Positions 2,913 to 17,519 of a stretch of DNA of 34,544 nt are shown here, piece after piece (the first letter of the stretch is position 1; each line of letters begins with the position of its first letter). The position numbers were made by a program, and so were the translations under genes. Location of the stretch: contig CAZNSB010000001.1 in NCBI GenBank assembly GCA_964575155.1, positions 1-34,544 on the forward strand, read 5' to 3'. The stretch is from an uncultured Planctomycetaceae bacterium. GTDB taxonomy: Bacteria > Planctomycetota > Phycisphaerae > SM23-33. The notes below the pieces were generated by a model. That model was not told the DNA's origin, did no database searches, and saw only the letters and a program-made list of their open reading frames with translations.

Positions 2913-4232
2913 ATGACGACCGTCTCGGGCAAAGTGCATTACGGGAAGCACTTGGTCCGCAAGATCACGTGCCCGAACTGCTGGCACTCCTTCCCGCCGG
3001 AGGACGTCCTGTTCATCGCCAAGCACACCGACCTGGTGGGCGATCCCATCGCCGGCGGGAACGAGTACCTCCGGTTCATGCCCGTCCGGTTCAACCTCGA
3101 GGGCGAGGCGCTGGACCCCCGCGGGGTGCCGACGTCGGATTTGGCCTGTCCGCGCTGCCACCTGGAGCTGCCGGACCAGATGCTCGAGGTCTCCCCGCTG
3201 TTCATCTCGCTGGTGGGCTCCCCCGCCAGCGGGAAGTCGTATTTCCTGACGGCCCTGGTGGACGGGCTGCGGTCCCTGATGCCGCGGGCGTTCCTTCAAT
3301 TCACCGACGCCGACACCGGGGCCAACAGCCCCATCCTCGAATACGAGAAGACCCTCTTCCACAGCTCCAGCCCGGAGGAGGTGACGGAGATCCGCAAGAC
3401 CCAGGCGGACGACCCGGACCTGCACCAGACCGCCCTGATCGGCGACATCCCGGTCCGTTTTCCGGTGCCACTGCAGTTCCAGCTCTGGCCGAACGAGCGG
3501 CACCCGAAGTTCCCTCAGGCGTACCGCATCGGGCGCATCGTGGTGATGTACGACAACGCCGGGGAAGACTTCCACCCGCAGACGGAAAGGGCCTCCTCGG
3601 CGGCGGTCAGGCACCTGGCCAGCTCGCACGTTCTGTTCGTGATGTTCGATCCCACGCAGGACACCACCTTCCGCGCCCAGTGCCACAGCGACGACCCCCA
3701 GCTCAAGCACGGGTTCCGCCCCGGGGCCGAGGCGACGCCGCTGCTCCGTCAGGAGAGCATACTGAATGAGGCCGCCAGGCGCATCCGGCGATACCACGGC
3801 GCCTCCCAGAGCACCCGCCTGAAGAAGCCGCTGATCGTGGTCGTCCCCAAATTCGACATCTGGGAAGACCTCCCGGGCCTGTCCCTGCAAGAAGAGCCGT
3901 ACGTCGACTCCGAGAACAACGGCCCGGCCAAGATGAACCTGGAGCGGGTCGAGCAGGTCAGCGAGTCGATCCGCGAGCTGTTCTGCCGGCTGTGCCCCGA
4001 CTTTGTGGCCACGGCCGAGGGCCTGAGCGAGTTCATCCGGTACGTCCCCGTCAGCAGTCTTGGAAGGAGCCCCGAGTACGTCGTGCGGGAAGACCGAAGC
4101 TTCTACGGCATCCGGCCGAAGGACATCAAGCCGAGGTGGGTGACGGTGCCCCTGGCGTACTGCCTGTGCAAATGGGCGACCGGACTGATCGGGTGGGCCG
4201 ACGCCCCCCGGCCGCCCGGGAGGTCCGAATGA
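2913..4232 (+). CDS. Zinc-ribbon-fused P-loop GTPase (TRAFAC-like; possibly of the 'double-GTPase' type found in GTPase-centric conflict systems)
   Basis: ATG 2913 is preceded by GGGGAAAGGA with a 7-nt spacer, and the upstream part of the track ORF is R/P/G junk. The protein is 439 aa. Zinc-ribbon cysteines are C20-x2-C23 ... C79-x2-C82. G1/Walker A is GSPASGKS (nt 3216-3239), G3 is hhhh-DNAG (VVMYDNAGE, nt 3552-3563) and the G4-like motif is VVVPKFD (nt 3846-3857). Confidence 0.85.
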   Translation: MTTVSGKVHYGKHLVRKITCPNCWHSFPPEDVLFIAKHTDLVGDPIAGGNEYLRFMPVRFNLEGEALDPRGVPTSDLACPRCHLELPDQMLEVSPLFISLVGSPASGKSYFLTALVDGLRSLMPRAFLQFTDADTGANSPILEYEKTLFHSSSPEEVTEIRKTQADDPDLHQTALIGDIPVRFPVPLQFQLWPNERHPKFPQAYRIGRIVVMYDNAGEDFHPQTERASSAAVRHLASSHVLFVMFDPTQDTTFRAQCHSDDPQLKHGFRPGAEATPLLRQESILNEAARRIRRYHGASQSTRLKKPLIVVVPKFDIWEDLPGLSLQEEPYVDSENNGPAKMNLERVEQVSESIRELFCRLCPDFVATAEGLSEFIRYVPVSSLGRSPEYVVREDRSFYGIRPKDIKPRWVTVPLAYCLCKWATGLIGWADAPRPPGRSE

Positions 4233-6973
4233 GCCTCGAACTGATTTACACGTCGGCGCCGCGGGGCCTCCGGCCGAACACCAGCGGCTTCTGCACGGTG
4301 GCGGCCACCACCGGCATGCCCAAGCACGCCTTCGAGAAGCTGGAGATGCTCAGCGGGTACGAGTTCTGCTACAACATCTCGGACGCCCGCGCCGACCAGA
4401 ACCCCGTCAACTTCATGCACACGCTGATCCTGATCGGCGGCGCCGGGCGTCACGTGCTGTCCAGGATCGCCTATTCCGGGGCAGACCACACCGCCCGCAC
4501 CAACAAGATCGCCCACCACTTCCTGCTGGAAGAGCCCGAGATGGCGGCGGCGGGGCCGGCGTGGATGCTCTCTCGGCTGTCGGCGGAGTCTTTCCGGAGG
4601 AAATGGGACGAACCCGCGGCCGAGCTCCCGCAGAGGTCCTTTGCCGACGCGCCGGGCGGCGCCCAGCCAGCCGACCCCGCCCCGGCCAAGGCCTGGCAGG
4701 AACGCACCGGCGACGCCGGCTGGGCCGGTGAGCTGGCCAGGGCCTTTCGCGAAGACAAAAAGGTCCCCGCCTACGTCATCTACAAGCCGGGGACCGACCT
4801 CCTGCCCCTCTTCCAGGAAAGCCTGGCCCTCCTGCCGGCCGAGGAGAGATGGTCCGTCTGCTTTGCCACCTACTACACCGCCCTGCCGACGGGCTGCCGG
4901 TGCCACTGGCGCGGGGTGGTGGCGGGCTCGAAGGCGGCCGGGGAGGCCGGACGCTTCCCCAGCGCGGTGGTGATCGACCTGACCCGCGCGGCGGGTCCGG
5001 CGCCGGAGAACGAGTTCACGGCGGCGGCCCGGCGGGGCGAGGCGGTCGCGCCGCTGGCGAAGGCGCCCGCCGCCCGGGCCGCCAGGCCCGAGCCGAGGAG
5101 AAGGGAAAGGGCCTTCGAAGCCGCCGTCGCCGAGGCCGTGGCTGCGGCCCCGGCCGAGGCGGGCCGGGGCGGGGCGCCCCGGCCCGCCGGCTACCCGGCC
5201 GGAGCGGCGCCGGCGGGATGGGGGCAAAGGTCTTCGCGGCTTCGCCGGCTGGTCATCGCCCTGGGCGCGTTGGCGGCGATCCTGGCGCTGGCCAACGCGT
5301 GGACGTTTTCCGGCCTCATGTCCGCGCGAGAGGACGCCGACGGGCTCCGGCGGAAGCAGACCGAACTTCAGGTCGAGCTGGCGCGGGCGCGGGTAAAGGC
5401 CGAGGACGCCGAGGAAAGTGTGCGGGCGCTGCGAGCGACCATCGCCGAGCTGAGGGGCAGCAAGCCCGGCCCGGAGCCCCCGAAGCCCCCGGTTGTGAGA
5501 GATCCGGTCCCCGAGCCCCCGAAGCCCCCGGTCGTGCCCCGGCCCGGCCCGAAGCCGCCGAAGCCCCCCAAGCCGACCCCGCCGACGCCGCCGGCTGTAA
5601 CGAGACTGAAGCTCAAGCCGCCGATGCCCCGGCGGGACCGGAAGGTCCGCGACTTCCAGCGCCGGCCCGTGGCCCCGACGTCCGTTAAGAGAAACCAGAT
5701 CGTCTTCGACATCGGCAAGGCCGACACCTTCCTGGATATGCCCGGCGTGCTGACCTCCAGCCGCGCTTTCACCTCGGAACGCGGGCGCGAGAACATGACC
5801 ATCAAGTGCCGCAGCGCCAGCGGGCTTTCCAAGAAGGTCCTCGAGTACTGGATCGAGGACGTCGGCGGCGCGCACCGGCTCATGCTGGAAATCCCCGAGG
5901 ACGCGGGGGGGGCCGGCGACTACACCAAGACGCTCGAATCGCTCGTCATCGAGGTGGTCGAGGAGGGCAACCGGGTAATCTACCAGTGTTCGCGGCGCCA
6001 GCCCCCCGCCCCCGAGACGATCGTCCTCGGGTTCAAGCCGGACGGGACCCCGATCGTCCCCGCCCGGAAAAGCTACAGCTACCTCTGGGCGAGCGTCCTG
6101 GAGATCGTCGACGCCGAGGACGAGCTCCTCAAGCGCAGAAAGGACCGCGCCGGGACCGCCCTGCCCGTGCTGGAGCTTGATCCCCCCGTCCAGGGCTTCG
6201 CCAAGCCGGTGTACACCTTCGAGTTCGACCGGCCCGAGCAGGGCCCGAAGTGGTCCATCCGGGTCAGCACGAACGCGACCGGCGAGATCGTCAACGAGGT
6301 CAAGAAAAGGGACCAGGCCCTGGCCGACCAAAACGGAAAGCTGGCCCCCCTGCTCCAGAAAAGGAAGGAACTCGGCGCCAAGAAGGGCCAACTGGCCAAG
6401 GTCGAGCAGGAAATGAAGATTCAAGAGAAGCTCGTGACTGATGTAGACAAGAAGACGGCGGCCCTCAAAGACAGCGCCAAGAAGCTTCGTGCCCAGAGCA
6501 CTTCGCTGACTGCGTCGATAAACAAGCTCGTAGACCAGAGAGACAAGATCGACACGCAGCTCAAGAAGAGAAATGCCGACAAGAAGAAGCTGCAAGCCGA
6601 AAAGACCAGGCCCAATGGCCAGATCCAAAAGAAGACCACCGAGCGAGACAAGTTGGACAAGGCCCTCAAGGCCGAGCAGCAACAGATCAAGCAGGCCGAG
6701 GCGGAGAAGAAGAGACTCCTGGGCCTGCCCGAGCTGAGAAGAACATTGCCGGCCGATATTCAGAAGCTGGAGAAGCAGATCGAGAAGCTGCCGGCGCAGC
6801 AGCAGGCCGTCAAGAAAGCGGGGGCCAGGCTCAACGAAATGACGAATATCATGAAGAAGCTGTCCGCCCAGGCGGGTCTCGTGAAGGTCATTGACCCGTG
6901 GGACGTGCCGGTGGCGACGTTCGAGTTGAGGTTCCAGCCGGCGGGCCTGAAGGAGATCCTGGCGAAGAACTAG
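4229..6973 (+). CDS. Bitopic membrane protein with a GAP1-N-like (GTPase-associated protein 1) N-terminal domain, a TM helix, a coiled coil, a Pro-rich spacer, a beta-rich domain and a K/E/Q-rich coiled coil
   Basis: The ATG at 4229 overlaps the stop of the GTPase gene (ATGA, 4229-4232). The protein is 914 aa. The N-terminus MSLELIYTSAPRGLRPNTSGFCTVAATTGMP matches, from memory, the h-x-YTS...GL...sGF..vA.s.G signature of GAP1-N2-type proteins. The TM helix is LVIALGALAAILALANAWTFSGL (nt 5249-5317), preceded by RSSRLRR, which implies N-in topology. The Pro-rich spacer is PEPPKPPVV x2 plus PKPPKPPKPTPPTPP. A heptad-rich region covers the last 225 codons. Stop TAG at 6971-6973. Confidence 0.85.
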   Translation: MSLELIYTSAPRGLRPNTSGFCTVAATTGMPKHAFEKLEMLSGYEFCYNISDARADQNPVNFMHTLILIGGAGRHVLSRIAYSGADHTARTNKIAHHFLLEEPEMAAAGPAWMLSRLSAESFRRKWDEPAAELPQRSFADAPGGAQPADPAPAKAWQERTGDAGWAGELARAFREDKKVPAYVIYKPGTDLLPLFQESLALLPAEERWSVCFATYYTALPTGCRCHWRGVVAGSKAAGEAGRFPSAVVIDLTRAAGPAPENEFTAAARRGEAVAPLAKAPAARAARPEPRRRERAFEAAVAEAVAAAPAEAGRGGAPRPAGYPAGAAPAGWGQRSSRLRRLVIALGALAAILALANAWTFSGLMSAREDADGLRRKQTELQVELARARVKAEDAEESVRALRATIAELRGSKPGPEPPKPPVVRDPVPEPPKPPVVPRPGPKPPKPPKPTPPTPPAVTRLKLKPPMPRRDRKVRDFQRRPVAPTSVKRNQIVFDIGKADTFLDMPGVLTSSRAFTSERGRENMTIKCRSASGLSKKVLEYWIEDVGGAHRLMLEIPEDAGGAGDYTKTLESLVIEVVEEGNRVIYQCSRRQPPAPETIVLGFKPDGTPIVPARKSYSYLWASVLEIVDAEDELLKRRKDRAGTALPVLELDPPVQGFAKPVYTFEFDRPEQGPKWSIRVSTNATGEIVNEVKKRDQALADQNGKLAPLLQKRKELGAKKGQLAKVEQEMKIQEKLVTDVDKKTAALKDSAKKLRAQSTSLTASINKLVDQRDKIDTQLKKRNADKKKLQAEKTRPNGQIQKKTTERDKLDKALKAEQQQIKQAEAEKKRLLGLPELRRTLPADIQKLEKQIEKLPAQQQAVKKAGARLNEMTNIMKKLSAQAGLVKVIDPWDVPVATFELRFQPAGLKEILAKN
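5474..5532 (+). repeat. Tandem 39-nt period repeat (20-nt identical core gagcccccgaagcccccggt x2) encoding PEPPKPPVV within a Pro/Lys-rich spacer
   Basis: Identical 20-mers at 5474-5493 and 5513-5532, followed by ccgaagccgccgaagccccccaagccg (PKPPKPPKP). Confidence 0.8.
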
Positions 6974-7077
6974 TGCTCTGTCAAGCATCATTTTGCTGGT
7001 GGCACAGGTTTGTAACCTGTGCGAGACAAACAGGTTGAAAACCTGTTCCACCCACAGATTCAACCTTGACAGAGCAC
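6973..7077. mobile_element. 105-bp MITE-like non-autonomous element with 13-bp perfect terminal inverted repeats, flanked by a TA duplication in a CTAG target (IS630/Tc1-mariner style)
   Basis: The left TIR is gtgctctgtcaag (6973-6985) and the right TIR is cttgacagagcac (7065-7077). Flanking TA dinucleotides at 6971-6972 and 7078-7079 sit inside C-TA...TA-G. The interior is about 47% G+C by my count, against a much more GC-rich background. It contains two related perfect hairpins: GCACAGGTT-tgt-AACCTGTGC (7002-7022) and AACAGGTT-gaa-AACCTGTT (7029-7047). Each TIR carries an outward-facing TTGACA. Confidence 0.7.
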
Positions 7078-7114
7078 TAGCCGGGGGGTGAGACTTCCGG
7101 CGGAGGCCGGGGCG

Positions 7115-10100
7115 ATGATGCCAACTGCAGAGGCGGTCGAAGAGATACAGTCGTTCCTTTACGGCGAGGCCCAGTTGGACGGCAGCCGGCTGCTCTCGCT
7201 GGCGCGCGCCTACGCCGAGGCCTGCACCCGGGTCAACAAGAAGGCCCTCCAGTGCCGAGACCTGCTCCACAAGGGGCTGCGGAACGAGGCCATCTGCGTC
7301 GCCAAGGAGGAGTACGACCTCAAGGAGGAATTCCAACTGGTCAGCTTCGACGAGAACGACGCCTGGTTCAGCGTCTGCGAGAAGGAGGGCCTCCCGATCC
7401 CCGACCTGATCGACTCGGACCTGGTCACCACCGTGGTCGAGGAGATCTACACGGGGCAGGGGAACATCGACCGGCTGCTTCGGGTGTACCGGCTGATGTC
7501 GCTGGCCCGGGCGCCGGTGGTGGACCTGATTCGGGTGCTTCGGCTGATCGCCAAGGAGGACCCTCGGCAGAGGTTCTGGCGGCAGGACGTGCGGACGTTC
7601 GAGAAGGCTCGGCTGGACGAGCTGCACGGCCTGGCCGACGAGGCCGCCGAAAAAGGCGATCGGTCGGCCCTGGAGGACATCGTGGCGGAGCTGACCGGCA
7701 AGGAGTGGCTGGAGCGACCGCCGGAGAGGCTCATCAGGTCGGCCCAGAAGAGCCTGCTCCCGCACCGCCGGGAGGCGGCCCAGGCGCGCTTCGGGCAGCT
7801 TCTCGAGGAGATTCGCCAGGCCCACAGCGCCCTGGACGAGCCCGCCTGCCGAGAGGCCGTCGCCACATGGCACGCCACCATCGACCAAACCCGCATCCAG
7901 CCCGACGCCGCAGACGCCGACCAGGTCGCCCAGGTCGAGGAATGGCTCCGGTCCCTGGAAGCCGCCAGGCAGGCCGAGGCCGAGTTCCAGCAGGCCTGCG
8001 ACACCCTCGATGCCGCCCTCAACGACCGAAAAGACCGCGCCGTCGTCGAGAAGGAGCTCGCCCAGGTCCGCCGGTTCGGGCAGGGGATGCCCTCCTGGCT
8101 GAAGGACAGGGCGGAGGGCTACCTGGCCGAGCTGCGGCGGCGCGCCAGGGTGAAGGGCACGTTCATCCTCGTCGGCACCGTCGCGGGGGTCCTGCTGGCG
8201 GGGGGGGCGGTGTGGCTGGCCGTCCTGCGCCACCGGGCCGGCGAAGAGCAAAGGAGCTGGGTGAACCAGATCACCGCCTGCCTGAACAAGAAGGACCTCG
8301 CCGGCGCCGAGAAGCTGCTGAAGGACCTGGAGAGGAAGGACCCGGGCTTCCATGGCTCGGCGGAGATCGGCGCCCTGCGGGTCCGGCTGGCCGGGGAGGT
8401 GGAACAGGTGGAGTTGGCGGCGAAGCGCGAGAGGGAGCGCAAGGAGCATTTCGCCAAGGCCATGGCCCTGGCCAGGTCGGCCGGGGTGACCCACCCGGAT
8501 CGCCAGGCCCTGGCCACCGCCAAGGGGCTGGCCAGGACGCCGGAAGAGAAGGGCCAGGTCACCGACCTCGAGCAGCGCATCGCGGAGGCACGCCGCGTCA
8601 GCACCGAGGAAAGGAAGGCGCAGATTGCCGCCACCGTGGCGAAGGCGCAGGTCGGGATCGGAGCACTCACCAGCGCCCTCGACCCCGTCAGGGAGCCCGA
8701 CCTCGAAAGCGTCGAGAAGCTCGCCAAACGATGCACCAGCTTCCTGGACCTTCTGGACGGGCTCCCAAAGAAAAACCCCCTCTCCGGGTCGATCTCCCGC
8801 CAGCGCGTGGCCAAGGCCCAGGAGGTCATCGACGAGGCCGTGAAGAAGGCCAAGGCCCCGAACCCGGCGCGTTTCGAGAACCTCGAAGCCCCCGCCGGGG
8901 CGTGCGCCGAGCTGTGCCGGCTGCTGGCGGCAAGCAAGGAACTCTCGAAAGAGCAGCAGGCCCTCCTGGCCGGTGCCGCCGACGCCGCCGACAAGGCCTT
9001 GAAGGCCGCCAAGGCCAGGTTCGAAACGGACCGGAAAATGGCCGCCGACTGGAAGGGGATTTCGAGGCTGTACGCCCGGCCGGAGGAGCTGGGCACTGCG
9101 CTCGTCGCGTTCGCCAGCACCTACCCGAATCACGCGTTTGCCAAGGACCTGGCGGCGGCCGCCACCATGACGACACAGTGCCGGTCGATGGGAGTATGGG
9201 AAGGCCTGGTCAAGCCGTGGCGCGCGGCCCCGCCCGTTTCCGACGCCCAGGAGGCCGAACGACGGCACACCGCCCTCGACCAGTTCCGCAAGGATCACGG
9301 CTCCGGGCCGTGGGAGGACGCCGCCAAGAGATACGCCGAGTACCTCCGGGCCGCGGTCGACACCTTGCCGAAGGACCGCCTCCCCGCCCAGCTTGCCGAC
9401 ATCCAACAGTTCCTGAACGACGACCTGATCGCCGCCTCGTCCATGTTCGTCACCAGGACGGGCAGTCGGTACTACTTGCTGAAAAACGCCGCCAAGGAGA
9501 TCAAGCTCAACGCCAGGGTGGTCGGGTGGAGGATCGATTACGTGGTCGACAGCCGATTGACCACGAAGCCGGAATCGCTGAGAATGGATGCCCTGGCCCT
9601 AATTTGCGCGCAGGGGCCGATCCCGGCGCCCCAGAATGCGCTTTCCAAGAGCATCCGGCAGGAGATCGGGCGGTTCGACGGGCCGGGATGGGAAACCCTC
9701 TGCCTGCGACTTGCCGACCTGGCACTACAGGACACGACCGTGGACCCGATCCTGCGGGCCGGCATCCTCAAGAGCCTGCTCGAAAGCGCCGCCCAGTTCA
9801 CGCCCCACCAAGCCGAGCCGATCAAGAAGACTGCGGACCGGTTTGAGAACCTCCCGCTGGAGGTGTACTGGATGGACCCGAAGGACGAGGACGCGAACAA
9901 GGCCCGCGGTCAGGTGGCCCGCTCGCTGGAGGAGATCGACCGAAAGACGCTCACCAGGATGATCCAGGACGTCCACGGCGGGCTCGACGGGCTCTTTCCC
10001 GCCCCCAGCCGGTGCGCCGGGATCATCTTCCCCCGCCGCGGGGAAGTGGTCCTCCACAAGGACCTCCGGGACGCCGACCTCTACGTCATCTCGGGCGAGA

Positions 10101-10243
10101 GCGGCAAGACGCCCGCCATGGTGAAAGTCGGCTTCGTGGCAGGAGGCAAGTTCGCGTCAGCCGGCCCGGCCGGCGGATACCCCGTCGGAAGCTGCCTCTT
10201 CGCCAGGGCCAGACACCCCGCTGGCTCAAGAAAAAGCCCTTAG
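7115..10243 (+). CDS. Large orphan bitopic membrane protein (1042 aa) with an alpha-helical cytoplasmic N-domain, one TM helix and a C-terminal region of about 670 aa predicted to be extracytoplasmic
   Basis: ATG-ATG at 7115/7118 follows GGAGG (7102-7106, 8-nt spacer); the track ORF begins at GTG 7088. The TM helix is GTFILVGTVAGVLLAGGAVWLAVL (about nt 8159-8230), preceded by RRRARVK. GC3 is consistently high. Stop TAG at 10241-10243. I recognise no family. Confidence 0.8.
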   Translation: MMPTAEAVEEIQSFLYGEAQLDGSRLLSLARAYAEACTRVNKKALQCRDLLHKGLRNEAICVAKEEYDLKEEFQLVSFDENDAWFSVCEKEGLPIPDLIDSDLVTTVVEEIYTGQGNIDRLLRVYRLMSLARAPVVDLIRVLRLIAKEDPRQRFWRQDVRTFEKARLDELHGLADEAAEKGDRSALEDIVAELTGKEWLERPPERLIRSAQKSLLPHRREAAQARFGQLLEEIRQAHSALDEPACREAVATWHATIDQTRIQPDAADADQVAQVEEWLRSLEAARQAEAEFQQACDTLDAALNDRKDRAVVEKELAQVRRFGQGMPSWLKDRAEGYLAELRRRARVKGTFILVGTVAGVLLAGGAVWLAVLRHRAGEEQRSWVNQITACLNKKDLAGAEKLLKDLERKDPGFHGSAEIGALRVRLAGEVEQVELAAKRERERKEHFAKAMALARSAGVTHPDRQALATAKGLARTPEEKGQVTDLEQRIAEARRVSTEERKAQIAATVAKAQVGIGALTSALDPVREPDLESVEKLAKRCTSFLDLLDGLPKKNPLSGSISRQRVAKAQEVIDEAVKKAKAPNPARFENLEAPAGACAELCRLLAASKELSKEQQALLAGAADAADKALKAAKARFETDRKMAADWKGISRLYARPEELGTALVAFASTYPNHAFAKDLAAAATMTTQCRSMGVWEGLVKPWRAAPPVSDAQEAERRHTALDQFRKDHGSGPWEDAAKRYAEYLRAAVDTLPKDRLPAQLADIQQFLNDDLIAASSMFVTRTGSRYYLLKNAAKEIKLNARVVGWRIDYVVDSRLTTKPESLRMDALALICAQGPIPAPQNALSKSIRQEIGRFDGPGWETLCLRLADLALQDTTVDPILRAGILKSLLESAAQFTPHQAEPIKKTADRFENLPLEVYWMDPKDEDANKARGQVARSLEEIDRKTLTRMIQDVHGGLDGLFPAPSRCAGIIFPRRGEVVLHKDLRDADLYVISGESGKTPAMVKVGFVAGGKFASAGPAGGYPVGSCLFARARHPAGSRKSP

Positions 10244-10252
10244 GGCTTCTTT
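10231..10252. terminator. Compact bidirectional hairpin lying on the overlapping convergent stop codons
   Basis: aaaaAAGCCCttaGGGCTTcttt forms a 6-bp stem (10234-10239 / 10243-10248) with loop tta, an A-run upstream and a T-rich stretch downstream. The plus-strand stop TAG (10241-10243) and the minus-strand stop TAA (10240-10242) share the loop. Confidence 0.4.
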
Positions 10253-11022
10253 CCGGACAGGAGCGTCCTCTTTGCCGCCTCGGCGGCGACGCTCGGACGC
10301 AAGGCGCCCGGAGAATACAGGTCGATCCCGCCGGCGCGGAGGTGCCCCGCCAGAGAGATGACCTTCCTGATCGCCTCGGTGCTTCGAGCCGACCCCTTCT
10401 GCGGTGCCTTCTCGGCGCCGGTGCGAGCGCAGAGCGTGCAGGAGATGACGCCGGCGCCCTGGCAGCGCGGGCAGACCACGGCGCCGGAGCCGCCGCAGTC
10501 GTTGCAGGTCGTCCCCTTGAGGGTGCCGACCCCGCGGCAGGTCGAGCACTTGGCGTGGCCCATCCCCCTGCACCTGGGGCAGTCCTCCCGGCCCGTGCCG
10601 AAGCAGCGCGGGCACCGCGCGGGAGGACGCCGGCCGACGCCGCCACGCGCGGAGAACATCTTCTCCAGCGGCGTCAGCAGGACCGAGTTGGCCAGTTCGA
10701 GCACGTAGGCCGATGCCGACGCCCTCTTCAGCTCGCGGGCCGCCAGGGCCCCGTCGCCCTGGAGGTGGGCCCGGAGCCCCTGCCGGAGGCTCTCCAGCGA
10801 CTCCAGCCGGTACCTGCGCTGATCCTTGCGGAGCCTGAGGAGCCTCCGGACGGCGGGGAGGTCCTTGGGGTTGGCCAGGACGGTCTTGCACAGCGATGCA
10901 ATCCGGCGGTCGACCTCGGCCGGCCTGAGGAGCTGCGAGAGGCCCCTCGGCGCCCGCCACAGCAGGGCGCCCACCAGGGCGCACAAGGCGCATGCCCGCG
11001 CGACGGCGGCGAACCGTTTCAT
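10240..11022 (-). CDS. Signal-anchored protein with six DnaJ-type CxxCxGxG zinc-finger repeats
   Basis: ATG at 11022 follows GGGGAAAGGG. The protein is 260 aa. The N-terminal hydrophobic segment is MKRFAAVARACALCALVGALLW. The repeats are CPRCFGTG, CPRCRGMG, CSTCRGVG, CNDCGGSG, CPRCQGAG and CTLCARTG (aa 137-202, nt 10417-10614). Confidence 0.85.
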   Translation of the reverse strand: MKRFAAVARACALCALVGALLWRAPRGLSQLLRPAEVDRRIASLCKTVLANPKDLPAVRRLLRLRKDQRRYRLESLESLRQGLRAHLQGDGALAARELKRASASAYVLELANSVLLTPLEKMFSARGGVGRRPPARCPRCFGTGREDCPRCRGMGHAKCSTCRGVGTLKGTTCNDCGGSGAVVCPRCQGAGVISCTLCARTGAEKAPQKGSARSTEAIRKVISLAGHLRAGGIDLYSPGALRPSVAAEAAKRTLLSGKKP

Positions 11023-11059
11023 CTTGCACCCTTTCCCCGGCCGGACCCGCCGCGGCGGG

Positions 11060-13609
11060 CTAGCTCCCGCACCGCACCAGCAGGTCCAGCAGGACCAGGT
11101 TGTAGTAGCAGCTCTCTCTCAGCTCCCGGACCACGTCCTTGACGTTGGCCAGGGCCTGGCGCCGGTCGCTGCGGGCCTTGGCCAGCGGCCCCTGGAGCTC
11201 TCCCTTGGCGTCGCAGGCCCGCACCAGCAGCTCCAGCAGCCCGCCCGTGGCGTCGAGACTGACCGCCGCCTGCTGCAGCGCGCCGTCGCTGGCCGCCAGC
11301 CGCGCCCCCGTGGTCGTCTCGATCGTCTCGGCCGGCGCGGAGAAGCTCTTCGCCTTGGGGTGCTCGCGGAGCAGCCTGAGCACCTGCCCGCGAAACGCCT
11401 CCAGGGCGCCGACGAGGTCGCCGCCCAGGTCCGGCGCCACGACGGTGGTGGGGCTGGCCAAGTCTGCGTCCGGCGGGGGGGCGGGCAGGCCCCACCGGTA
11501 GCTCTTCAGGCCGGCCGCGGCCGCCGAGGCGTAGTGCGCGGTGACGGCCAGCAGCTTGATGGAATCGGCGTCGGGCTCCCAGGCCGGCGGCTTGGGGGCG
11601 CCGACCGCCGGGGCCGGCGCCGCTGCTTGCCCGGCCCCCCAACGCGTCGCTTGGATGATCCGCGCCCAATCTGCCGCGCAGGACTTGCGCTGTGCGGCGT
11701 TGTTGACCATCGGCAAGACCACCCCGCGATATCCGCGGTACGTCCCCCCGGTGCCCTCGATGAGCGTCTGGGCGATCTGGTATGCCAGCTCGGCGCTGGG
11801 CGTGTGGTCGACAAGCTTGATCAGCTCCCGGGGGATGGTGGCGTCGCTCATGGACTTGAGGGCGCGGAGGACGCGGCTGGCGATCCTCATGTCGGCCCTG
11901 CGTGCTTTCGATTGACGTTGGAGCGCCTGTAGCAGGACCGCGGCGGCCTGGGTCGTGTCGAGCTTCCGCAGATCCTCGATGGCCTGGTAGCGGACGGCGA
12001 TGTTCGGAGAGATCAGGTCCACCTGGAGCTTCCTGGCGGGGTTCGCCGCCGGCTTCCCGGGCGCCGGCGCCGGCGGGGGCGGCCCCGAGGCCGCCGGGAC
12101 AGTCACTCCCCTCGTCAGGGCGCTGCGGCGATCGCTCGCCGAGGCCGCCGACCGCAGCTCGTCCTCCGACAACCAGCCCGAGGCGCCGGTCCACCGCGCC
12201 GCCTGGTTGCAGCAGGCCTTCATCGTCATGGCCACGTCCGTGAGGACCTCGTCGCGCGTCCTGGACCGCTCGTACGCCCGCCGGAACTCGGCCAGGAAGC
12301 CCCCGCCGGGCGATGGCGGCGCCGTCGGCGACAGCTCGCCGATGTCCGCCGCCGGCACCGGCTCCAGGCCGGGGCGGCTCGGGGGCTGTGGCACGAGCGG
12401 CGTCGGCGCCGGCGGGGGCGCCGCCGGGGGCGAATCGGTCGGAGGCTCGATCGGGAGCAACTGGCGGGGCGCCGGTTGCGCCGCCGGCGGGCGGGGGGAG
12501 GGCCGATCCGGCCTCTCCCAGTCGCCGGTGAGCGCCTCCGAGACCAGCGAGAAGGCGCTGGTCGGCGGGGTCGGGGGCTCCCAGAACCCGCCGAAGGCCA
12601 GCAGGAGCGCCATCAGGACAGCGACGGCGACGGCCGGGATGGCAACGACCTCGACCTGCGGGAAGGACCGGCGGGGCACGCCCCCCCCCGCCGGCGGGAG
12701 CGGCACGGGCGAGGTCGGCGCCGGCGAGGGGGAGCTCAGACACCGCTCCATCACCTGCCGGGCCCCCTCCGCCGCCAGCCCGATCGCCGCCGCCGCCTCC
12801 AGCAGCCTCGCACGGTCCTCGGCCGATGCCCGCCCCTGCGGGTGCATCGCCCGCACCTGCTGGGCGAACATATCCTCGATGGCCGCCCGGTCCCGGTCGT
12901 CGCGCCGCGCCTGTCGGCTCCGGAGGCGCTGGTCGATCCGCTCGGCGGCGAGGTCGGCGGGGATGCCCAGCCTCCTGGCCAGTTCCGTCAGCTTGCGCTC
13001 GTCCGCAGCGGCCAGCACGCCGCCCTCGATCTCCATGTCGATGACGCTGTCGAAGAATTGCAGCGCCTCGTCACTCGGCGGGCCCGCGGGCGCGGCCGGG
13101 GCCGGGATCTGCGCCAGGGCGGCCTCCACCTCCTGCTCGGGCAGGCCCAGCCGGCAGAGGCGTTCGGCCAGTTCCGGTCGCCTGGGGTGGTCCAAGGTGC
13201 CGTCGGGGGCGACCATGGAGGCGATGACCTGTCGGGCGGCCCGGACGAGGCGTTCCCTCTCGGCGCGGAACCTGCCGGGCCTCTTCGGGCGGGCCTCGCC
13301 GGCCACACGCTGCTGATACTCCGCCCGCCTCTGCGGGCTCAGCAGCGTCTCCGCCGCCTCTGCCAACTGCTTCTCGAACAGCATCACCATGGGGATGAAC
13401 TGGGGCCCGGGGATGTTCTGGCGAAGCTGCATCCTGCGCTCCCGCAGGGCCCGGCGGACGGCATCGGGGCTCACCTGGCGGGGGGAAAGCCCCAGCAGCT
13501 CGTACGGGGTGGGCTCCGTCTCCTTCTCGGGTATCCCCAGCAGTCTGTACAAGGCCTTGGCGTACAGCATGGTCAGGCTTCGTCGGATCGTCCCCGGCCG
13601 ACAGGTCAC
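11060..13609 (-). CDS. HPD-less J-like domain membrane protein with helical repeat modules, one TM helix, a Pro-rich linker and a HEAT-like C-terminal region
   Basis: The start is either GTG 13609 or ATG 13570 (MLYAKALYRLLGIP...), and neither has a clear SD. The J-like region is YELLGLSPRQVSPDAVRRALRERRMQLRQNIPGPQ...LLSPQRRAEYQ, with QNIPGP where the HPD motif would be. The TM helix is VVAIPAVAVAVLMALLLAFGGFW. HEAT-like sequence: ISPNIAVRYQAIEDLRKLDTTQAAAVLLQAL. Stop TAG at 11060-11062, 37 nt before the Zn-finger gene. Confidence 0.8.
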   Translation of the reverse strand: MTCRPGTIRRSLTMLYAKALYRLLGIPEKETEPTPYELLGLSPRQVSPDAVRRALRERRMQLRQNIPGPQFIPMVMLFEKQLAEAAETLLSPQRRAEYQQRVAGEARPKRPGRFRAERERLVRAARQVIASMVAPDGTLDHPRRPELAERLCRLGLPEQEVEAALAQIPAPAAPAGPPSDEALQFFDSVIDMEIEGGVLAAADERKLTELARRLGIPADLAAERIDQRLRSRQARRDDRDRAAIEDMFAQQVRAMHPQGRASAEDRARLLEAAAAIGLAAEGARQVMERCLSSPSPAPTSPVPLPPAGGGVPRRSFPQVEVVAIPAVAVAVLMALLLAFGGFWEPPTPPTSAFSLVSEALTGDWERPDRPSPRPPAAQPAPRQLLPIEPPTDSPPAAPPPAPTPLVPQPPSRPGLEPVPAADIGELSPTAPPSPGGGFLAEFRRAYERSRTRDEVLTDVAMTMKACCNQAARWTGASGWLSEDELRSAASASDRRSALTRGVTVPAASGPPPPAPAPGKPAANPARKLQVDLISPNIAVRYQAIEDLRKLDTTQAAAVLLQALQRQSKARRADMRIASRVLRALKSMSDATIPRELIKLVDHTPSAELAYQIAQTLIEGTGGTYRGYRGVVLPMVNNAAQRKSCAADWARIIQATRWGAGQAAAPAPAVGAPKPPAWEPDADSIKLLAVTAHYASAAAAGLKSYRWGLPAPPPDADLASPTTVVAPDLGGDLVGALEAFRGQVLRLLREHPKAKSFSAPAETIETTTGARLAASDGALQQAAVSLDATGGLLELLVRACDAKGELQGPLAKARSDRRQALANVKDVVRELRESCYYNLVLLDLLVRCGS

Positions 13610-13712
13610 CCCGGCGGCTGCCCGGCCGCAGACCAGATCGCGTCCCGTTCAAGATGGTACCGGGCGACGACGCGGACGACAAGGACAATACCCCCCGCCG
13701 GGGAGAGCCCTC

Positions 13713-13740
13713 TTGTTACCGACGGGAAGTCCGCTAAGAT
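13713..13740 (+). promoter_or_regulatory. Candidate sigma70-like promoter for the Zn-ribbon/vWA/exbBD operon
   Basis: TTGTTA (13713-13718), a 16-nt spacer, then TAAGAT (13735-13740). This is only 13 nt before ATG 13754, which implies a near-leaderless mRNA, and no SD is visible. Confidence 0.3.
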
Positions 13741-13753
13741 ACCGGGCGCGACG

Positions 13754-14926
13754 ATGATCGCATTCGAATGCGAGAATTGCGGAAAGCCGTTGAGGGTCGC
13801 GACCCGGCTGGCGGGGAAACTGGCCAAGTGCCCGGGGTGCGGGCACGCCGTCCGGGTGCCCATCTCGACGATGCCCCCCGAGGAGGAGCCCGCCGGCGCC
13901 GCCCCGGCGGAGCCGCCCCAGGCCGGGGACGTCGCTCCCGCGGCGCCGGAGTTTGGGGACAGGCAGGCTCCGTGCGGCGAGGGCGAGCCGCCGGCCCCGG
14001 CGCCGGGGACGGACCAGCCGCCCGTCCCGGCGGCGCCCCCGCCGCAGGCGGGGGGCCCACTGGACCTCCGCGCCGGCGCGGCGCCCGCCGAGGACACGAC
14101 GGCGGACGTCCTCGCCGGCGCCCTGATGCTGGCGACCTTCCTGATCCCCTGGGTGGTGCTGCCCAACGGGGTCTTCATGTCCTGGGACGTCGCCAGGGAG
14201 GCCGGCGCCGCCTTCAACATGTTTCTCGTCGGCGCGTGGGTGATCGGCATTGCCGTCCTCCTCGTCAACCTCTCCGTCCGAGGCATCCAGCGATGGAGGT
14301 GGAACGCGGGGCTGGGGGCGCTGGGCATGGTCCTGACCCTGATCATGCTGGGGCAGTTCTCGCACGCCGACTGGAGCACCAGCCCGCTGCCGAACTCCAG
14401 GACCGTGGCCATCGTCTGCGTGCTGCTCCTGGTGGCCCTGATCGTGGTGGAGAACCTGCAACTGCGGTTCCAGGCCAATCAGTCGCTGGCGACGGCCGGG
14501 CGGGTGGTGGGCGCGCTGGTGATCGCGGCCTTCGCCGCCGGTCTGGTCAAGGGGGTCGCCAATTACAGCGACCAGCCGGTGGACCTGCGGGAGAGGTCCG
14601 CCCTGGACCTGGTGTTCCTGTCGTTCTGGCGGCTGGCGATGATCGCGGCGGGCGTGGCGGCGACGCGCCCGCCCACCGCCGCGGTGTCCCGGTTGGTCCT
14701 GACGGGTCTGTACGTGTCGCTGGGCGTGCTGGGGGCCTACCTGATCGTCCGCCCCCCCTTCCTGTTCGAGATCGGCGGGATCGCGCTGACGTTCCTGAAC
14801 CTCATCATGATCGTCGGGGGGCTGATCCTCCTCGCCTGCCGGGGGTTCATCGAGGCCATCAGCGAGCGCATCCGAGCTTCGCGCCCGCCCCCCGCCGCGG
14901 CCGCACCCGGGGCAAAAACCGCTTGA
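13754..14926 (+). CDS. N-terminal zinc-ribbon protein fused to a polytopic (about 8 TM) membrane domain
   Basis: ATG 13754; 390 aa. The ribbon is MIAFECENCGKPLRVATRLAGKLAKCPGCGHAVRVP. A Pro/Ala-rich linker is followed by about 8 hydrophobic helices. Stop TGA at 14924-14926. Confidence 0.8.
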   Translation: MIAFECENCGKPLRVATRLAGKLAKCPGCGHAVRVPISTMPPEEEPAGAAPAEPPQAGDVAPAAPEFGDRQAPCGEGEPPAPAPGTDQPPVPAAPPPQAGGPLDLRAGAAPAEDTTADVLAGALMLATFLIPWVVLPNGVFMSWDVAREAGAAFNMFLVGAWVIGIAVLLVNLSVRGIQRWRWNAGLGALGMVLTLIMLGQFSHADWSTSPLPNSRTVAIVCVLLLVALIVVENLQLRFQANQSLATAGRVVGALVIAAFAAGLVKGVANYSDQPVDLRERSALDLVFLSFWRLAMIAAGVAATRPPTAAVSRLVLTGLYVSLGVLGAYLIVRPPFLFEIGGIALTFLNLIMIVGGLILLACRGFIEAISERIRASRPPPAAAAPGAKTA

Positions 14927-15016
14927 CGTCCCTGCGCGTCGGCGGTCCAATGCGCCCGGGCGTTCAGGGCTCGCCCCCGGACCGCTGGCGCCGTCCAAGG
15001 GCGGAAAGAGGGTAAG

Positions 15017-16297
15017 ATGATCTGTTTCCAGTGCGACAACTGCCAGAAGGATCTGCGGGTCCCTGACCGCCTGGCCGGAAGGATGGCCAGGTGTCCCCGC
15101 TGCGGAAAGGCGGTCCGAGTGCCCATGGTCACCTTCGCGCCGGGCCCGCCCGCCCCGCCTGCCGGGCCTCACTCGCCGCCGGCGCGGGCGCGGGCGGGCG
15201 TTGGCGCCGCCGGGCGGCCCGTCCCCCCCGGCCCGCCGGCCGACGCGACGGCCCCGCAGCCCGCGGCGGGGGCGGGGGCGCCGCCGCCCGGCCCGGACGA
15301 GGGGGAGGAGGCGGCGCCGAGGGAGGTGGTCGGGCCGAAGCACCGCAGCGACTCCGTCGCCGGGTGGGCGGTCTCCCTGATCCTCCACAGCCTCATCCTG
15401 GTCGGCTTCTCCGGATACACGTGGATGGCGGGCCTCGGGACCGGCGGCGGCCGGGCCGAGGCCGACATGGGCGTCGTCATCGACACCGGCGGCGAGATCT
15501 CCTCCGGCGCCGCCGAGGCCCTCCAGATGCAGGCCGACGTCGGCGAGGTGGCGCTTACCGGCCTCAGCCAGGAACCGGCCGGCATCGAGCCGATCACCGG
15601 CCTGGGGCCGGGCGTGTCGGCCTCGTCGCCGATCGGCCCGCTGGTGGCGTCGGCGCTGTGCGGGGGCGGGGGCGGACCCGCGGCGCGCGGCGACCTGTCG
15701 ATGATCGCCGGCGGCGGCGTGGGCGGGGGGGCGAGCTTCTTCGGCATCGTCACCCCGGCGGACGCCAGCAAGTTCGTTTACGTCCTGGACTACTCCGGCA
15801 GCATGCAGGGGAAAAAGCTCGCGCTGGTCAAGGAAGAGCTGCTCCGCGCGATCAGCGCCCTGAAGCAACGGATGAAGTTCTACATCATCTTCTACGACGA
15901 CGACTACGAGGCCATGGCCGCCGAGAAGCTGGTCCCGGCGACCCAGCAGAACAAGCGCCAGTACCTCACCTGGGCCAACGGGGTCCACGGGGGCGGGGGG
16001 ACCGACCCGACCGAGGCCATGAAACTGGCCCTGTCGCTGAAGCCTCACGCCATCTGGCTGCTCTCGGACGGCATATTCAACCCCCACGCGTGCGACGTGA
16101 TCCGCCGGGCCAACCCCCGGGCGCGGGTCCGCATCCACACGATCGCGTTCTGGGACAACGCCGGGCAGTCGCTGCTGGAGCGGATCGCCAAGGAGAATCG
16201 CGGGCGGTGCCGTTTCGTGCCCGGGCCGGGGTCGGCGCCGCCAGGCGCCCGCCCCGCCGGCCGGCGGCATCCGCGAAGGACAATCCGCCGCCCATGA
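15017..16297 (+). CDS. Zinc-ribbon, Pro/Ala-rich linker, TonB-like (S-x3-H) TM anchor, Gly-rich linker and von Willebrand factor A domain protein
   Basis: ATG 15017; 426 aa. The ribbon is MICFQCDNCQKDLRVPDRLAGRMARCPRCGKAVRVP. The TM helix is WAVSLILHSLILVGFSGY (S120 at nt 15374, H124 at nt 15386). The vWA MIDAS motif DxSxS is DYSGS (nt 15788-15802), followed by GGGTD and LLSDG. Confidence 0.85.
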   Translation: MICFQCDNCQKDLRVPDRLAGRMARCPRCGKAVRVPMVTFAPGPPAPPAGPHSPPARARAGVGAAGRPVPPGPPADATAPQPAAGAGAPPPGPDEGEEAAPREVVGPKHRSDSVAGWAVSLILHSLILVGFSGYTWMAGLGTGGGRAEADMGVVIDTGGEISSGAAEALQMQADVGEVALTGLSQEPAGIEPITGLGPGVSASSPIGPLVASALCGGGGGPAARGDLSMIAGGGVGGGASFFGIVTPADASKFVYVLDYSGSMQGKKLALVKEELLRAISALKQRMKFYIIFYDDDYEAMAAEKLVPATQQNKRQYLTWANGVHGGGGTDPTEAMKLALSLKPHAIWLLSDGIFNPHACDVIRRANPRARVRIHTIAFWDNAGQSLLERIAKENRGRCRFVPGPGSAPPGARPAGRRHPRRTIRRP

Positions 16298-16310
16298 AAG
16301 GGCCGTGCCC

Positions 16311-17060
16311 ATGAGAAGGACCGCGTGGCTGTCTGTCATCGTACTCGTTCTGCTGCTGCTTTGGGTCTGGGCGGGTCAGGCGGCCGCCCAGGCCCCGCCC
16401 GACAGCGCGGACGCCCAGGTCGGGGGAAAGAAGATCTCCCTGTGGCGCATGATCCGGGCCGGCGGGTTCATCGGGTTCGTCATCATCCTGCTGTCGCTGG
16501 TGGCCACGGCGCTGATCATCGAGCATTTCCTCTCGATCCGGCGGGACCGGCTGGTGCCGCCGGTCCTTGCGGACCGGCTGGGGGCGTTCCTGGACGCCGG
16601 CCAGCACGAGCAGGCGCAGCACGAGTGCGAGCAGGACGCGTCGTTCCTGGGCGCGGTGGTCAACGCCGGGCTGGGGCAGCGGGGAGGGATGTTCGGGTTC
16701 TTCGACATGCAGACCGCCATGCAGGAGGTCAGCGAGCGCGAGGTCTCCAAACTGTACCGCAAGATCGAGTACCTCGCGTTCATCGCGGGCGCGGCCCCGA
16801 TGCTGGGCCTGCTGGGGACGGTGACGGGCATGATCGTCTCGTTCAACGTGATCGCCCAGAGCGAGGGGACCGCCAAGCCGTCGCAACTGGCCGAGGGCAT
16901 CTGGGAGGCGCTGATCACCACCGTCGAGGGGCTGGTCGTGGCCATCCCCGTCATGTTCTTCGTGTCCTTCTTCCGGGGGCGGATCGACAGCTTCGTCGCC
17001 GAGGCCGAGGTCGTCGTCGAGAAACTCATGGGACGCTTCCGCAAAGCGCCCGCGGAATAG
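16311..17060 (+). CDS. exbB: MotA/TolQ/ExbB-family proton channel protein
   Basis: ATG 16311 follows GAAAGGG (alternative GTG at 16305). The family motif PMLGLLGTVTGMI is present, with three TM helices. The symbol denotes the family, not proven orthology (TolQ/AglR-like is equally possible). Confidence 0.85.
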   Translation: MRRTAWLSVIVLVLLLLWVWAGQAAAQAPPDSADAQVGGKKISLWRMIRAGGFIGFVIILLSLVATALIIEHFLSIRRDRLVPPVLADRLGAFLDAGQHEQAQHECEQDASFLGAVVNAGLGQRGGMFGFFDMQTAMQEVSEREVSKLYRKIEYLAFIAGAAPMLGLLGTVTGMIVSFNVIAQSEGTAKPSQLAEGIWEALITTVEGLVVAIPVMFFVSFFRGRIDSFVAEAEVVVEKLMGRFRKAPAE

Positions 17061-17071
17061 GAGCCGGACCC

Positions 17072-17506
17072 ATGAGACTGCACAAGCCGCGACGCAGCTA
17101 CGGGTGCGAAATCAACATGACCCCGATGATCGACATCGTCTTCCAGTTGATCATCTTCTTCATGACGGCGACGCAACTGGTCCGGATCGAGGCGGAGGAC
17201 CTGGCGCTGCCCGAGGCCGGCGAGGGCGAGCAGGTCAGCCAGCTCACCACCGGGCCGGTGGTGGTGAACGTCCATGAGGACGGGCGGATCGTCATCTCGC
17301 ACCAGACCGTCCGCCCCGCCGGGCTGGGCCCGGCCCTCGCCGAGCATCTCAAGCAGCGGGCCCCCGCCGACCGGTCGGTGGTGATCCGCGGGGACCGCAA
17401 CGCCGCCTGGGAAAAGATCACCACGGTCCTTCAGGCCTGCGCGGGCAGCCGGATCGGGCGCGTGCGCGTCGCGGTCGTCGAGCCGCCCGCCCAGCCGTCC
17501 CCGTGA
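17072..17506 (+). CDS. exbD: ExbD/TolR-family biopolymer transport protein (copy 1)
   Basis: ATG 17072 follows AGGAG. INMTPMIDIVFQLIIFFM is the canonical ExbD/TolR N-terminal TM motif, including the conserved Asp. Confidence 0.85.
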   Translation: MRLHKPRRSYGCEINMTPMIDIVFQLIIFFMTATQLVRIEAEDLALPEAGEGEQVSQLTTGPVVVNVHEDGRIVISHQTVRPAGLGPALAEHLKQRAPADRSVVIRGDRNAAWEKITTVLQACAGSRIGRVRVAVVEPPAQPSP

Positions 17507-17519
17507 GGAGGCCCCAGGC

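Follow-up and report, generated by a model that had tools for sequence, protein, structure and literature searches.

The DO-GTPases defined by Kaur et al. 2020 (eLife 9:e52696) are a family of TRAFAC GTPases whose Walker B motif contains a conserved Glu; they are encoded immediately upstream of GAP1 and co-evolve with it. N-terminal Zn ribbons are found in 60% of DO-GTPases, usually two of them in the GAP1-N2 systems, and a paralogous GTPase 'double' is present in 38% of the systems without being obligatory. The same study describes planctomycete GAP1-N2 systems with Zn-ribbon GTPases and with GAP1 fused to a transmembrane (TM) segment, a rapidly evolving FNIII-repeat protein as the companion of GAP1-N2, and a range of variable partners (tubulin/vWA, HSP70-GrpE-DnaJ, kinase-PP2C, SLATT, FGS, and GYF), with an HSP70/DnaJ theme in some GAP1-N2 neighborhoods. 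In the searchable literature, DO-GTPase/GAP1 systems appear only there and in one passing mention; the essential-genome paper on V. spinosum does not mention them. Here, we describe a locus of three genes, A, B, and C, on contig CAZNSB010000001.1 of an uncultured Planctomycetaceae bacterium. The trio was examined in the first 34,544 nucleotides of the contig, which we call the window, and its relatives in the 80 best loci of at least 568. The locus is a three-gene operon, the form of the DO-GTPase/GAP1-N2 system found in the Planctomycetes-Verrucomicrobia-Chlamydiae (PVC) clade.

All three genes are on the forward strand. Gene A (2913–4232) encodes a cytoplasmic protein of 439 residues with a Zn ribbon and a TRAFAC-fold GTPase domain, gene B (4229–6973) a bitopic GAP1 protein of 914 residues, and gene C (7115–10243) a bitopic protein of 1042 residues with a single TM helix. 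A previous annotation made from the letters alone, the sequence-only reading, had described a tight co-directional unit with an ATGA overlap at 4229–4232, and the coordinates, frames, and overlap were all verified: the TGA of A is at 4230–4232 and the ATG of B at 4229–4231. The translated products of A, B, and C are identical to records from an NCBI 41-kb contig, and all three open reading frames are backed by the phase of third-position GC (GC3). The gene after C (10240–11118) is on the opposite strand and overlaps the stop codon of C, and the frame plot places the 862-codon frame beyond it on the minus strand as well. Because this downstream gene is convergent, the operon ends at C, and the trio is a self-contained unit.

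How does this locus compare with the GAP1-N2 DO-GTPase systems already described? As in those systems, a Zn-ribbon GTPase with a Walker B DxxGE motif is encoded directly upstream of GAP1, the GAP1 protein has N2 and M domains and a C-terminal TM segment, carriers are found among planctomycetes and verrucomicrobia, and the system is predicted to act at the membrane. Unlike many of them, the window trio has a single GTPase gene and no paralogous pair. Furthermore, Pfam gives no fn3/FNIII domain in B, in C, or in nine homologues of C, and no tubulin, HSP70/GrpE, kinase/PP2C, or SLATT/FGS/GYF component was found, none being inside the operon. A vWA gene (14927–16297) and the gene for a DnaJ-type Cys-rich protein (10240–11118) are near the trio and outside the operon, and would be no more than candidates for such linked components. 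The constant third gene of the trio instead belongs to an unannotated family of bitopic proteins of about 1000 residues, and the trio is apparently inherited vertically across the PVC phyla rather than in a patchy manner. Relative to the main text of Kaur et al., the constant C, the single GTPase, the taxonomy-congruent PVC distribution, and the frequent MotA-like extension described below appear to be new, and part of this may already be contained in the source data of that paper.

The product of gene A had been taken for a Zn ribbon joined to a TRAFAC-type GTPase, and its motifs, model, and fold all bear this out. More than 714 homologues of A were found, with identities of 47–62%, and motif conservation was judged in an alignment of 65 of them. 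The Zn module (2970–3158) is made up of CPNC (C20 and C23, 2970–2981) and CPRC (C79 and C82, 3147–3158), with all four Cys invariant and a beta-rich insert between the two pairs; the AlphaFold2 (AF2) model predicts beta strands in residues 17–92. The four conserved Cys imply a single putative Zn site rather than two ribbons. The Walker A or G1 motif, GSPASGKS (residues 102–109, 3216–3239), is the only one in frame in the window; G102, G107, and K108 are invariant, and the pattern common to the homologues is GxPxSGKS. The Walker B or G3 motif is DNAGE (residues 214–218, 3552–3566), with Y213, D214, N215, G217, and E218 invariant, and the G4-like guanine-specificity motif KFD (3849–3857) has K313 and D315 invariant in the form K313-x-D315. 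To judge from the general G3 motif, E218 would stand where Ras has its catalytic Gln and EF-Tu its His, and for this reason A is probably hydrolysis competent.

The hydropathy scan shows no TM segment in A. The AF2 model of A has a mean predicted local distance difference test score (pLDDT) of 90.4 and a predicted template modeling score (pTM) of 0.90, and in a Foldseek search of the PDB all 22 matches with E ≤ 1e-3 are TRAFAC GTPases. The matches, to eEF1A, Hbs1, GBP, atlastin, Era, and Ras, are distant, with E about 1e-4 and template modeling scores (TM-scores) ≤ 0.54. Sequence and profile searches of the PDB with A gave nothing significant, and A matches no housekeeping family in NCBIfam or Pfam; weak similarities, limited to the P-loop, are seen with Csx3-AAA and PRK13768.

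A itself misses the Pfam gathering cut-off for the DO-GTPase families (PF19975/PF19993, 27 bits), scoring 18.5 bits on DO-GTPase2 and 12.5 bits on DO-GTPase1, in both cases over the P-loop only. This shortfall counts against the family assignment. Matches to DO-GTPase2 with E < 0.01 were obtained for 8 of 20 homologues of A. One homologue that is 48% identical to A (P0116) scores 27.6 and 27.1 bits on the DO-GTPase profiles, and two others (P0118 and P0119) match profile positions 81–179 with 23.7–25 bits. The homologues are collinear with DO-GTPase1/2, with the P-loop region on positions 1–79 and the stretch from Walker B to G4 on positions 81–179, at scores at or just below the cut-off. By its motifs, its gene context, and these borderline matches of its homologues, A is a divergent DO-GTPase, and the locus as a whole is very probably a DO-GTPase/GAP1-N2 system.

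The assignment of the N-terminus of B to the GAP1-N family, made in the sequence-only reading, proved correct. Residues 2–136 (4232–4636) match GAP1-N2 (PF20013, E 6.7e-25, 88.2 bits) over profile positions 2–136 of 139, and residues 159–253 (4703–4987) match GAP1-M (PF20014, E 4.5e-11, 43.3 bits) over positions 7–101 of 101; the gathering cut-off is 24 bits for each. Both domains were found in all nine B homologues scanned, which come from several phyla. No third GAP1 domain was found by Pfam in B or in these nine homologues, the presence of a GAP1-C model in the library being unconfirmed. A set of polar residues of the N2 domain, E4, Y7, T8, S9, E39, H64, R79, D86, R90, N92, H96, and H97, is kept in at least 90% of 54 homologues, which suggests a defined binding or catalytic surface. 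Past GAP1-M, B has a short conserved A267-R268-G270 patch, and residues 254–336 form an Ala/Arg/Pro-rich low-complexity linker leading to the TM helix.

The single TM helix of B, located by hydropathy scan, spans residues 337–361 (5237–5311), and a TM helix is found at the equivalent site in all long B homologues of Planctomycetota. By contrast, the B proteins of Lentisphaerae and Kiritimatiellota, of about 306 residues and consisting of N2 and M only, have no TM helix and are soluble. The flanks of the helix in B are ambiguous for the positive-inside rule, and we place its N-terminus inside because the GAP1 domains are cytoplasmic. The sequence-only reading had regarded a membrane-anchored GAP1 as a departure from the described architecture; this does not hold, since TM-fused planctomycete GAP1-N2 proteins are already reported in Kaur et al. 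2020.

Residues 362–914 of B (5312–6970) form the extracytoplasmic part, as described by composition, coiled-coil matches, and direct repeats. It begins with a short coiled coil and a PEPPKPP-type proline-rich linker (DNA repeats at 5464–5593; direct repeats D8 and D11), continues with a mixed/beta region (about residues 470–690) and a Lys/Gln/Leu-rich coiled coil of about 190 residues (about 690–880), and ends in a short beta tail, VKVIDPWDVPVATFELRF. Residues 506–597 give sub-threshold Ig-V-like matches, and the matches of coiled-coil type are to SMC, Rad50, and LmuB. Sequence and profile searches of the PDB with B gave nothing significant.

What is the third component? Gene C had been described as an orphan without a family, and this is not the case. 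A word-index search with full-length C returned only C itself, and the same search with an alignment of 21 sequences returned four matches; the family became visible because an exhaustive HMMER search replaced the word-index search. With a profile of the N-terminal domain of C, that search gave 2,222 clusters (50% identity), of which 978 have E ≤ 1e-30. With few exceptions, the members are 950–1050 residues long and carry the domain at their extreme N-terminal end, and C is the constant third gene of the locus in several phyla. Pfam gives no match in C or in nine of its homologues.

The cytoplasmic N-terminal domain of C (residues 1–345, 7115–8149) is all-alpha, with 15 helices in a helical-repeat-like arrangement, and is the most conserved part of the protein; C47, A59, W84, R126, R143, and E163 are invariant in an alignment of 21 sequences from several phyla (alignment A2). 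Its AF2 model, built from a 5-sequence alignment, has a pLDDT of 84.9 and a pTM of 0.47. Foldseek gave only non-significant matches of this domain to helical-repeat, TPR, and SNAP proteins, and searches with C, its N-terminal domain, or its C-terminal region against PDB sequences and profiles gave nothing significant. A single TM helix follows at residues 346–372 (8150–8230), as located by hydropathy scan, with five Lys/Arg before it and two after it. This balance fits an N-in orientation by the positive-inside rule and agrees with the earlier description of C as an N-in bitopic protein. All of the more than 40 full-length homologues of C have one TM helix at about residues 340–380. The extracytoplasmic part (residues 373–1042, 8231–10243) consists of an Ala/Leu/Glu/Lys-rich helical region and then a conserved C-terminal region, which can be aligned across phyla, with W919 invariant and G969 and G1025 near-invariant.

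At least 568 species-representative genomes contain a relative of A. The 80 best belong to Planctomycetota (Phycisphaerae and Planctomycetia), Lentisphaerae, Kiritimatiellota, and one metagenome-assembled genome labeled Verrucomicrobia; among them is a cultured organism, Oligosphaera ethanolica DSM 24202 (L076), which has the trio. A survey of these neighborhoods confirmed the expected co-occurrence of the three genes: B adjoins A in 56 of 62 loci, C is downstream in 44 of 49, and the order A-B-C is kept in Planctomycetota, Lentisphaerae, and Kiritimatiellota. With tblastn, the N-terminal 345 residues of C (22–37% identity) are found downstream of B in almost every sufficiently long locus. Synteny with the window neighbors beyond the trio is seen only in the nearest clade (L003 and L005).

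Could the three genes be chance neighbors, or A a known housekeeping NTPase of the SRP/FtsY, MinD, or Era type? The sub-cut-off DO-GTPase scores of A and its P-loop-only similarities to Csx3-AAA and PRK13768 would fit such an explanation. However, A has no housekeeping match, its PDB profile search gives nothing significant, its fold matches only generic TRAFAC GTPases, and the gene order, with genes overlapping or nearly abutting, is kept in tens of genomes from several phyla. This explanation is thus hardly credible, and the conserved synteny effectively refutes it.

A minority of loci depart from the common arrangement. In 6 of the 62, the A homologue has no adjacent GAP1 gene; in one of the loci surveyed (L059), B is 8.4 kb downstream of A, and in five (L018, L028, L041, L061, and L062) an A-like gene has neither B nor C nearby. 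In L028 the A frame, at 593 codons, is as long as the FHA-fused forms described below. The A homologues without an adjacent GAP1 gene may be unlinked second GTPase paralogues or rearranged systems. In two other loci, B is split into two overlapping frames (L051:3479–6042 and L073:11341–13898), apparent frameshifts, pseudogenes, or assembly errors.

In all clades, C is about 960–1046 residues long with a TM helix at about residues 345–375, and B is bitopic only in Planctomycetota. Because B is soluble in Lentisphaerae and Kiritimatiellota while C keeps its bitopic architecture there, we read C as the ancestral membrane anchor of the complex, and the TM helix and ectodomain of B as an addition in Planctomycetota. 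The tree of A groups largely by taxonomy.

Genes are added to the trio in many relatives. A MotA/ExbB-like module lies downstream of C, on its strand, in 17 of the 39 loci that could be assessed, all of them in Planctomycetota. It consists of a small gene, a gene for a 4-TM protein of the MotA/ExbB family, and two mutually paralogous genes for proteins of about 265 and 306 residues with an N-terminal TM helix (for example L089:16687–20567, L071:11224–12105, L032:17814–18734, and L011:18046–18897). The A protein of L089 is 59% identical to that of the window. These loci suggest an alternative in which the trio would be a regulator or adaptor of a Tol/Ton/Mot-type ion-driven machine, with the GTPase controlling engagement of the stator with periplasmic B and C, and with the motor genes separated from the trio in this genome. 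A vWA-ExbB-ExbD-ExbD-fusion operon is indeed located 3.5 kb downstream in the window, and homologues of the ExbD fusion and of the two intervening genes adjoin the trio in L005 despite rearrangement. However, the ExbB of the window is only distantly related to the triad-linked MotA-like family (profile E 2e-7, in the channel core), and ExbB/ExbD and vWA genes are near the triad in few other loci, so that their presence could be due to chance. Furthermore, the module is missing from all 8 assessable loci of Lentisphaerae and Kiritimatiellota and from 14 loci of Planctomycetota. We consider it unlikely that the trio as such is a stator adaptor.

Other additions are seen closer to the window. In the sister clade nearest to it, an FHA domain is fused to A, giving forms of 588–673 residues (P0032, P0062, P0071, P0074, and others). 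In the nearest clade, an extra gene for a bitopic protein of about 600 residues lies between B and C (L003:14115–15923 and L005:11572–13356), and its product ends in the same V-x-V-x-DPW-x-x-P-x-A tail as B of the window. The genes between B and C in L003, L005, L023, L050, and L065 have no significant Pfam match. One relative of C, P0190, is a complete gene (L087:183–2861) for a protein of 892 residues, in which a TIR_2 domain (381–471) is joined to a C-type N-terminal domain (519–862) and a TM helix; by eye, its N-terminus is like the end of a Ser/Thr kinase. A candidate TIR domain like that of P0190 in the L005 insert was rejected, as it is not there. These cases show that the trio core accepts add-ons, which is the same property as that of the systems of Kaur et al.

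From these features, we propose a mechanism in which A would act as a cytoplasmic GTP switch through its G1, G3, and G4 motifs and would bind a co-evolving partner, the cytoplasmic GAP1-N2 and GAP1-M domains of B. On the cytoplasmic side of the inner membrane, both would dock on the helical-repeat N-terminal domain of C. C would be the constant membrane anchor, and the sole TM protein of the trio in Lentisphaerae and Kiritimatiellota, with B presumably having acquired, in Planctomycetota, a TM helix and an ectodomain of coiled-coil and beta structure that evolves fast. Through the TM helices, the GTP- or GDP-bound state of A could then influence which conformation the large periplasmic parts of C and B adopt or how they assemble; just as well, the signal could run the other way, with the state of these ectodomains gating the GTPase. 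In many Planctomycetota, the trio would in addition be coupled to a MotA/ExbB-type ion-driven stator. We give about even chances to such a GTP-gated trans-membrane switch, of which the complex itself, the docking, and the output are the conjectural parts.

As for its role, we favor a resident switch or scaffold associated with the envelope, serving surveillance or maintenance, rather than a mobile abortive-infection toxin, because there is no enzymatic effector, inheritance looks vertical, and the gene context is that of core envelope functions. The window contains no defense or mobile-element genes besides a small palindrome, and the GC content of the trio is similar to that of its flanks. 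The neighbors are genes for a PIG-L deacetylase, the vWA-ExbB-ExbD-ExbD-fusion operon, IspH, GT2, PMT_2, an epimerase, a DegT aminotransferase, and a methyltransferase. PADLOC-DB 2.0 gives only weak matches of P-loop type (Csx3, E 0.01) or coiled-coil type (LmuB, JetC, and ZorA on residues 680–880 of B), nothing for A beyond P-loop noise, and nothing for the GAP1 part of B; an NCBIfam scan of the trio likewise gives P-loop or coiled-coil noise only. These scans agree with the initial impression that no classical effector is encoded in the window. The output suggested in the sequence-only reading, membrane or envelope remodeling in place of canonical abortive infection, is speculative. No match was found for A and the GAP1 part of B among 72,556 plasmids, or for A among 50,697 phage records, collections in which PVC replicons are probably rare.

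Several points weigh against a resident role. The only interpretation published for the family, by Kaur et al. 2020, treats it as a conflict system directed against invaders, and the searchable literature holds no experimental test of any family member, as the sequence-only reading had also stated. Applied to this locus, the published interpretation would have the variable ectodomain of B, and perhaps C, sense an invader or envelope damage; the GTPase-GAP1 pair would set the threshold, and the bitopic proteins would reorganize the membrane in a lethal or growth-arresting manner with no enzymatic effector. The DO-GTPase/GAP1-N2 family assignment of the locus speaks for this interpretation. The ectodomain of B is hypervariable, its sequence being unrecognizable outside the nearest clade, whereas the cytoplasmic part is 36–61% identical across the relatives. 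Variable genes are inserted between the trio members in the five loci named above, FHA is fused to A in the sister clade, and P0190 joins TIR_2 to a C-type domain and lacks a periplasmic part. The MotA-like stator of the relatives recalls Zorya, and in the window this module is absent. Furthermore, the taxonomy-congruent tree of A is a quick neighbor-joining tree of 81 sequences without support values, and the helix packing in the model of the C N-terminal domain, the putative docking site, is uncertain because of its low pTM.

On the other side, the core and its topology are constant over several phyla, the tree of A is mostly taxonomic, and no effector is present in the window, where the PADLOC matches to coiled coils are noise. 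No plasmid or phage copies appeared in the collections searched, the window is free of defense and mobile genes apart from the palindrome, and the TIR fusion occurs once among the 150 best family members listed. We judge a conflict system rather improbable for this trio. We would put forward, at no greater strength, an ancestral and vertically inherited trans-envelope GTPase machine of the Planctomycetota, Lentisphaerae, and Kiritimatiellota, coupled to a stator in many Planctomycetota and serving core cell biology rather than immunity.

More distant comparisons can be made at the level of fold or organization. The G domain of A is enlarged (about 340 residues), like those of the large TRAFAC GTPases activated by dimerization (GBP, atlastin, and the mitofusin/dynamin superfamily), and the G domains of GBP2 and atlastin-1 give the best query-normalized fold scores for A (TM-score 0.30). 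These proteins also act at membranes with helical partner domains. The likeness is at the fold level only, with E about 1e-4 and identities of 7–11%, and eEF1A, Hbs1, Era, and Ras match equally well. Unlike GBP, atlastin, and dynamin, A lacks a built-in helical stalk and TM segment, and it comes with a Zn ribbon and with GAP1 as a separate partner protein.

With the 4-TM MotA/ExbB protein, the single-TM partners, and the long coiled-coil proteins found together in 17 of 39 relatives, the stator-attached trio would resemble Zorya (ZorAB), Tol-Pal, and TonB-ExbBD. Unlike Zorya, the window has no such module and no ZorC- or ZorD-like genes, and the PADLOC match to ZorA is to the coiled coil of B only (E 0.28). 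The conservons of Streptomyces (CvnA-D) comprise a membrane sensor, a Roadblock protein, CvnC, and a Ras-like GTPase and are a putative G-protein-like switch. Like the trio, they are bacterial operons centered on a small GTPase, which is accompanied by a partner anchored in the membrane and by accessory proteins of its own. No sequence relationship was detected, and the trio has no histidine-kinase-like, Roadblock/LC7, or MglB-type component.

The spacer between B and C is 141 nucleotides long and contains a palindromic element (6970–7080), which overlaps the TAG stop of B. It is near-perfect, with arms of 51 nucleotides, and as RNA would fold with −63 kcal/mol (z = −9.3). It had been called a 105-bp miniature inverted-repeat transposable element (MITE). 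The palindrome is real and measures 111 nucleotides, with one copy in the window; the 17 nucleotides at its ends (CTAGTGCTCTGTCAAGC) are also present on five further metagenome contigs (L082–L086), where they enclose different, unrelated cores, and for this reason a small mobile, MITE-like element is plausible but not proven. As an intercistronic hairpin, it could affect the ratio of B to C expression. Without the palindrome, the spacer is about 36 nucleotides rather than the 34 given before, and the spacers of the relatives range from −8 to +109 nucleotides. The GGAGG noted with it is present as a ribosome-binding site at 7102–7106 on the forward strand, 8 nucleotides before the ATG of C. An Rfam scan of the window gave no RNA family, and promoter and terminator scans of the window did not exceed the shuffled expectation.

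Some observations concern the neighboring genes. The convergent gene at 10240–11118 (minus strand) encodes a protein of 292 residues that has a TM helix at its N-terminus and cysteine-rich CxxCxGxG repeats of the DnaJ type; its match to BSD2_CRD is below the cut-off (E 0.002). The next, at 11060–13609 (minus strand), encodes a bitopic protein of 849 residues with no Pfam match, in which the N-terminus (YELLGLSP...) looks by eye like a J-domain. Homologues of both genes are beside the trio in L003 and L005, in other order and orientation. The operon at 13700–20443 (plus strand) encodes an 8-TM protein, vWA (15017–16297), ExbB (16305–17060), ExbD (17066–17506), and a protein of about 940 residues. 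The ExbD motif recurs at the N-terminus of this 940-residue protein, with a direct repeat at 17114–17164 and 17565–17615 that is 84% identical, and a homologue of this ExbD fusion is near the trio in L005. Upstream of A, the GC3 phase within 1375–2117 jumps near 1800 from the 1375–2154 frame to the 606–2117 frame, which suggests a frameshifted gene or a sequencing error. The 606–2117 frame was called by the Joint Genome Institute (JGI) on an identical contig, and the 1375–2154 frame has no Pfam match.

The trio offers a compact version of the system for study, with one GTPase, one GAP1 protein, and one constant membrane partner. Mutagenesis would have well-defined targets in the motifs of A (K108, E218, D315, and its four Cys), and a cultured carrier exists in Oligosphaera ethanolica DSM 24202. 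The family of C, with more than 2,000 clusters at 50% identity, has neither a Pfam model nor a structural relative, yet it is the constant third component. Either outcome as to function would be informative. If the trio is immune in function, it would be a type of defense without an effector. If it is a housekeeping system, it would be a GTP switch acting at the envelope throughout a lineage of bacteria that are poorly understood in their cell biology, FtsZ-less division included. Should the ancestral trans-envelope machine be the right description, the trio would serve envelope or membrane organization or FtsZ-independent division or budding, and the 'conflict system' label would be wrong for this branch of GAP1-N2.

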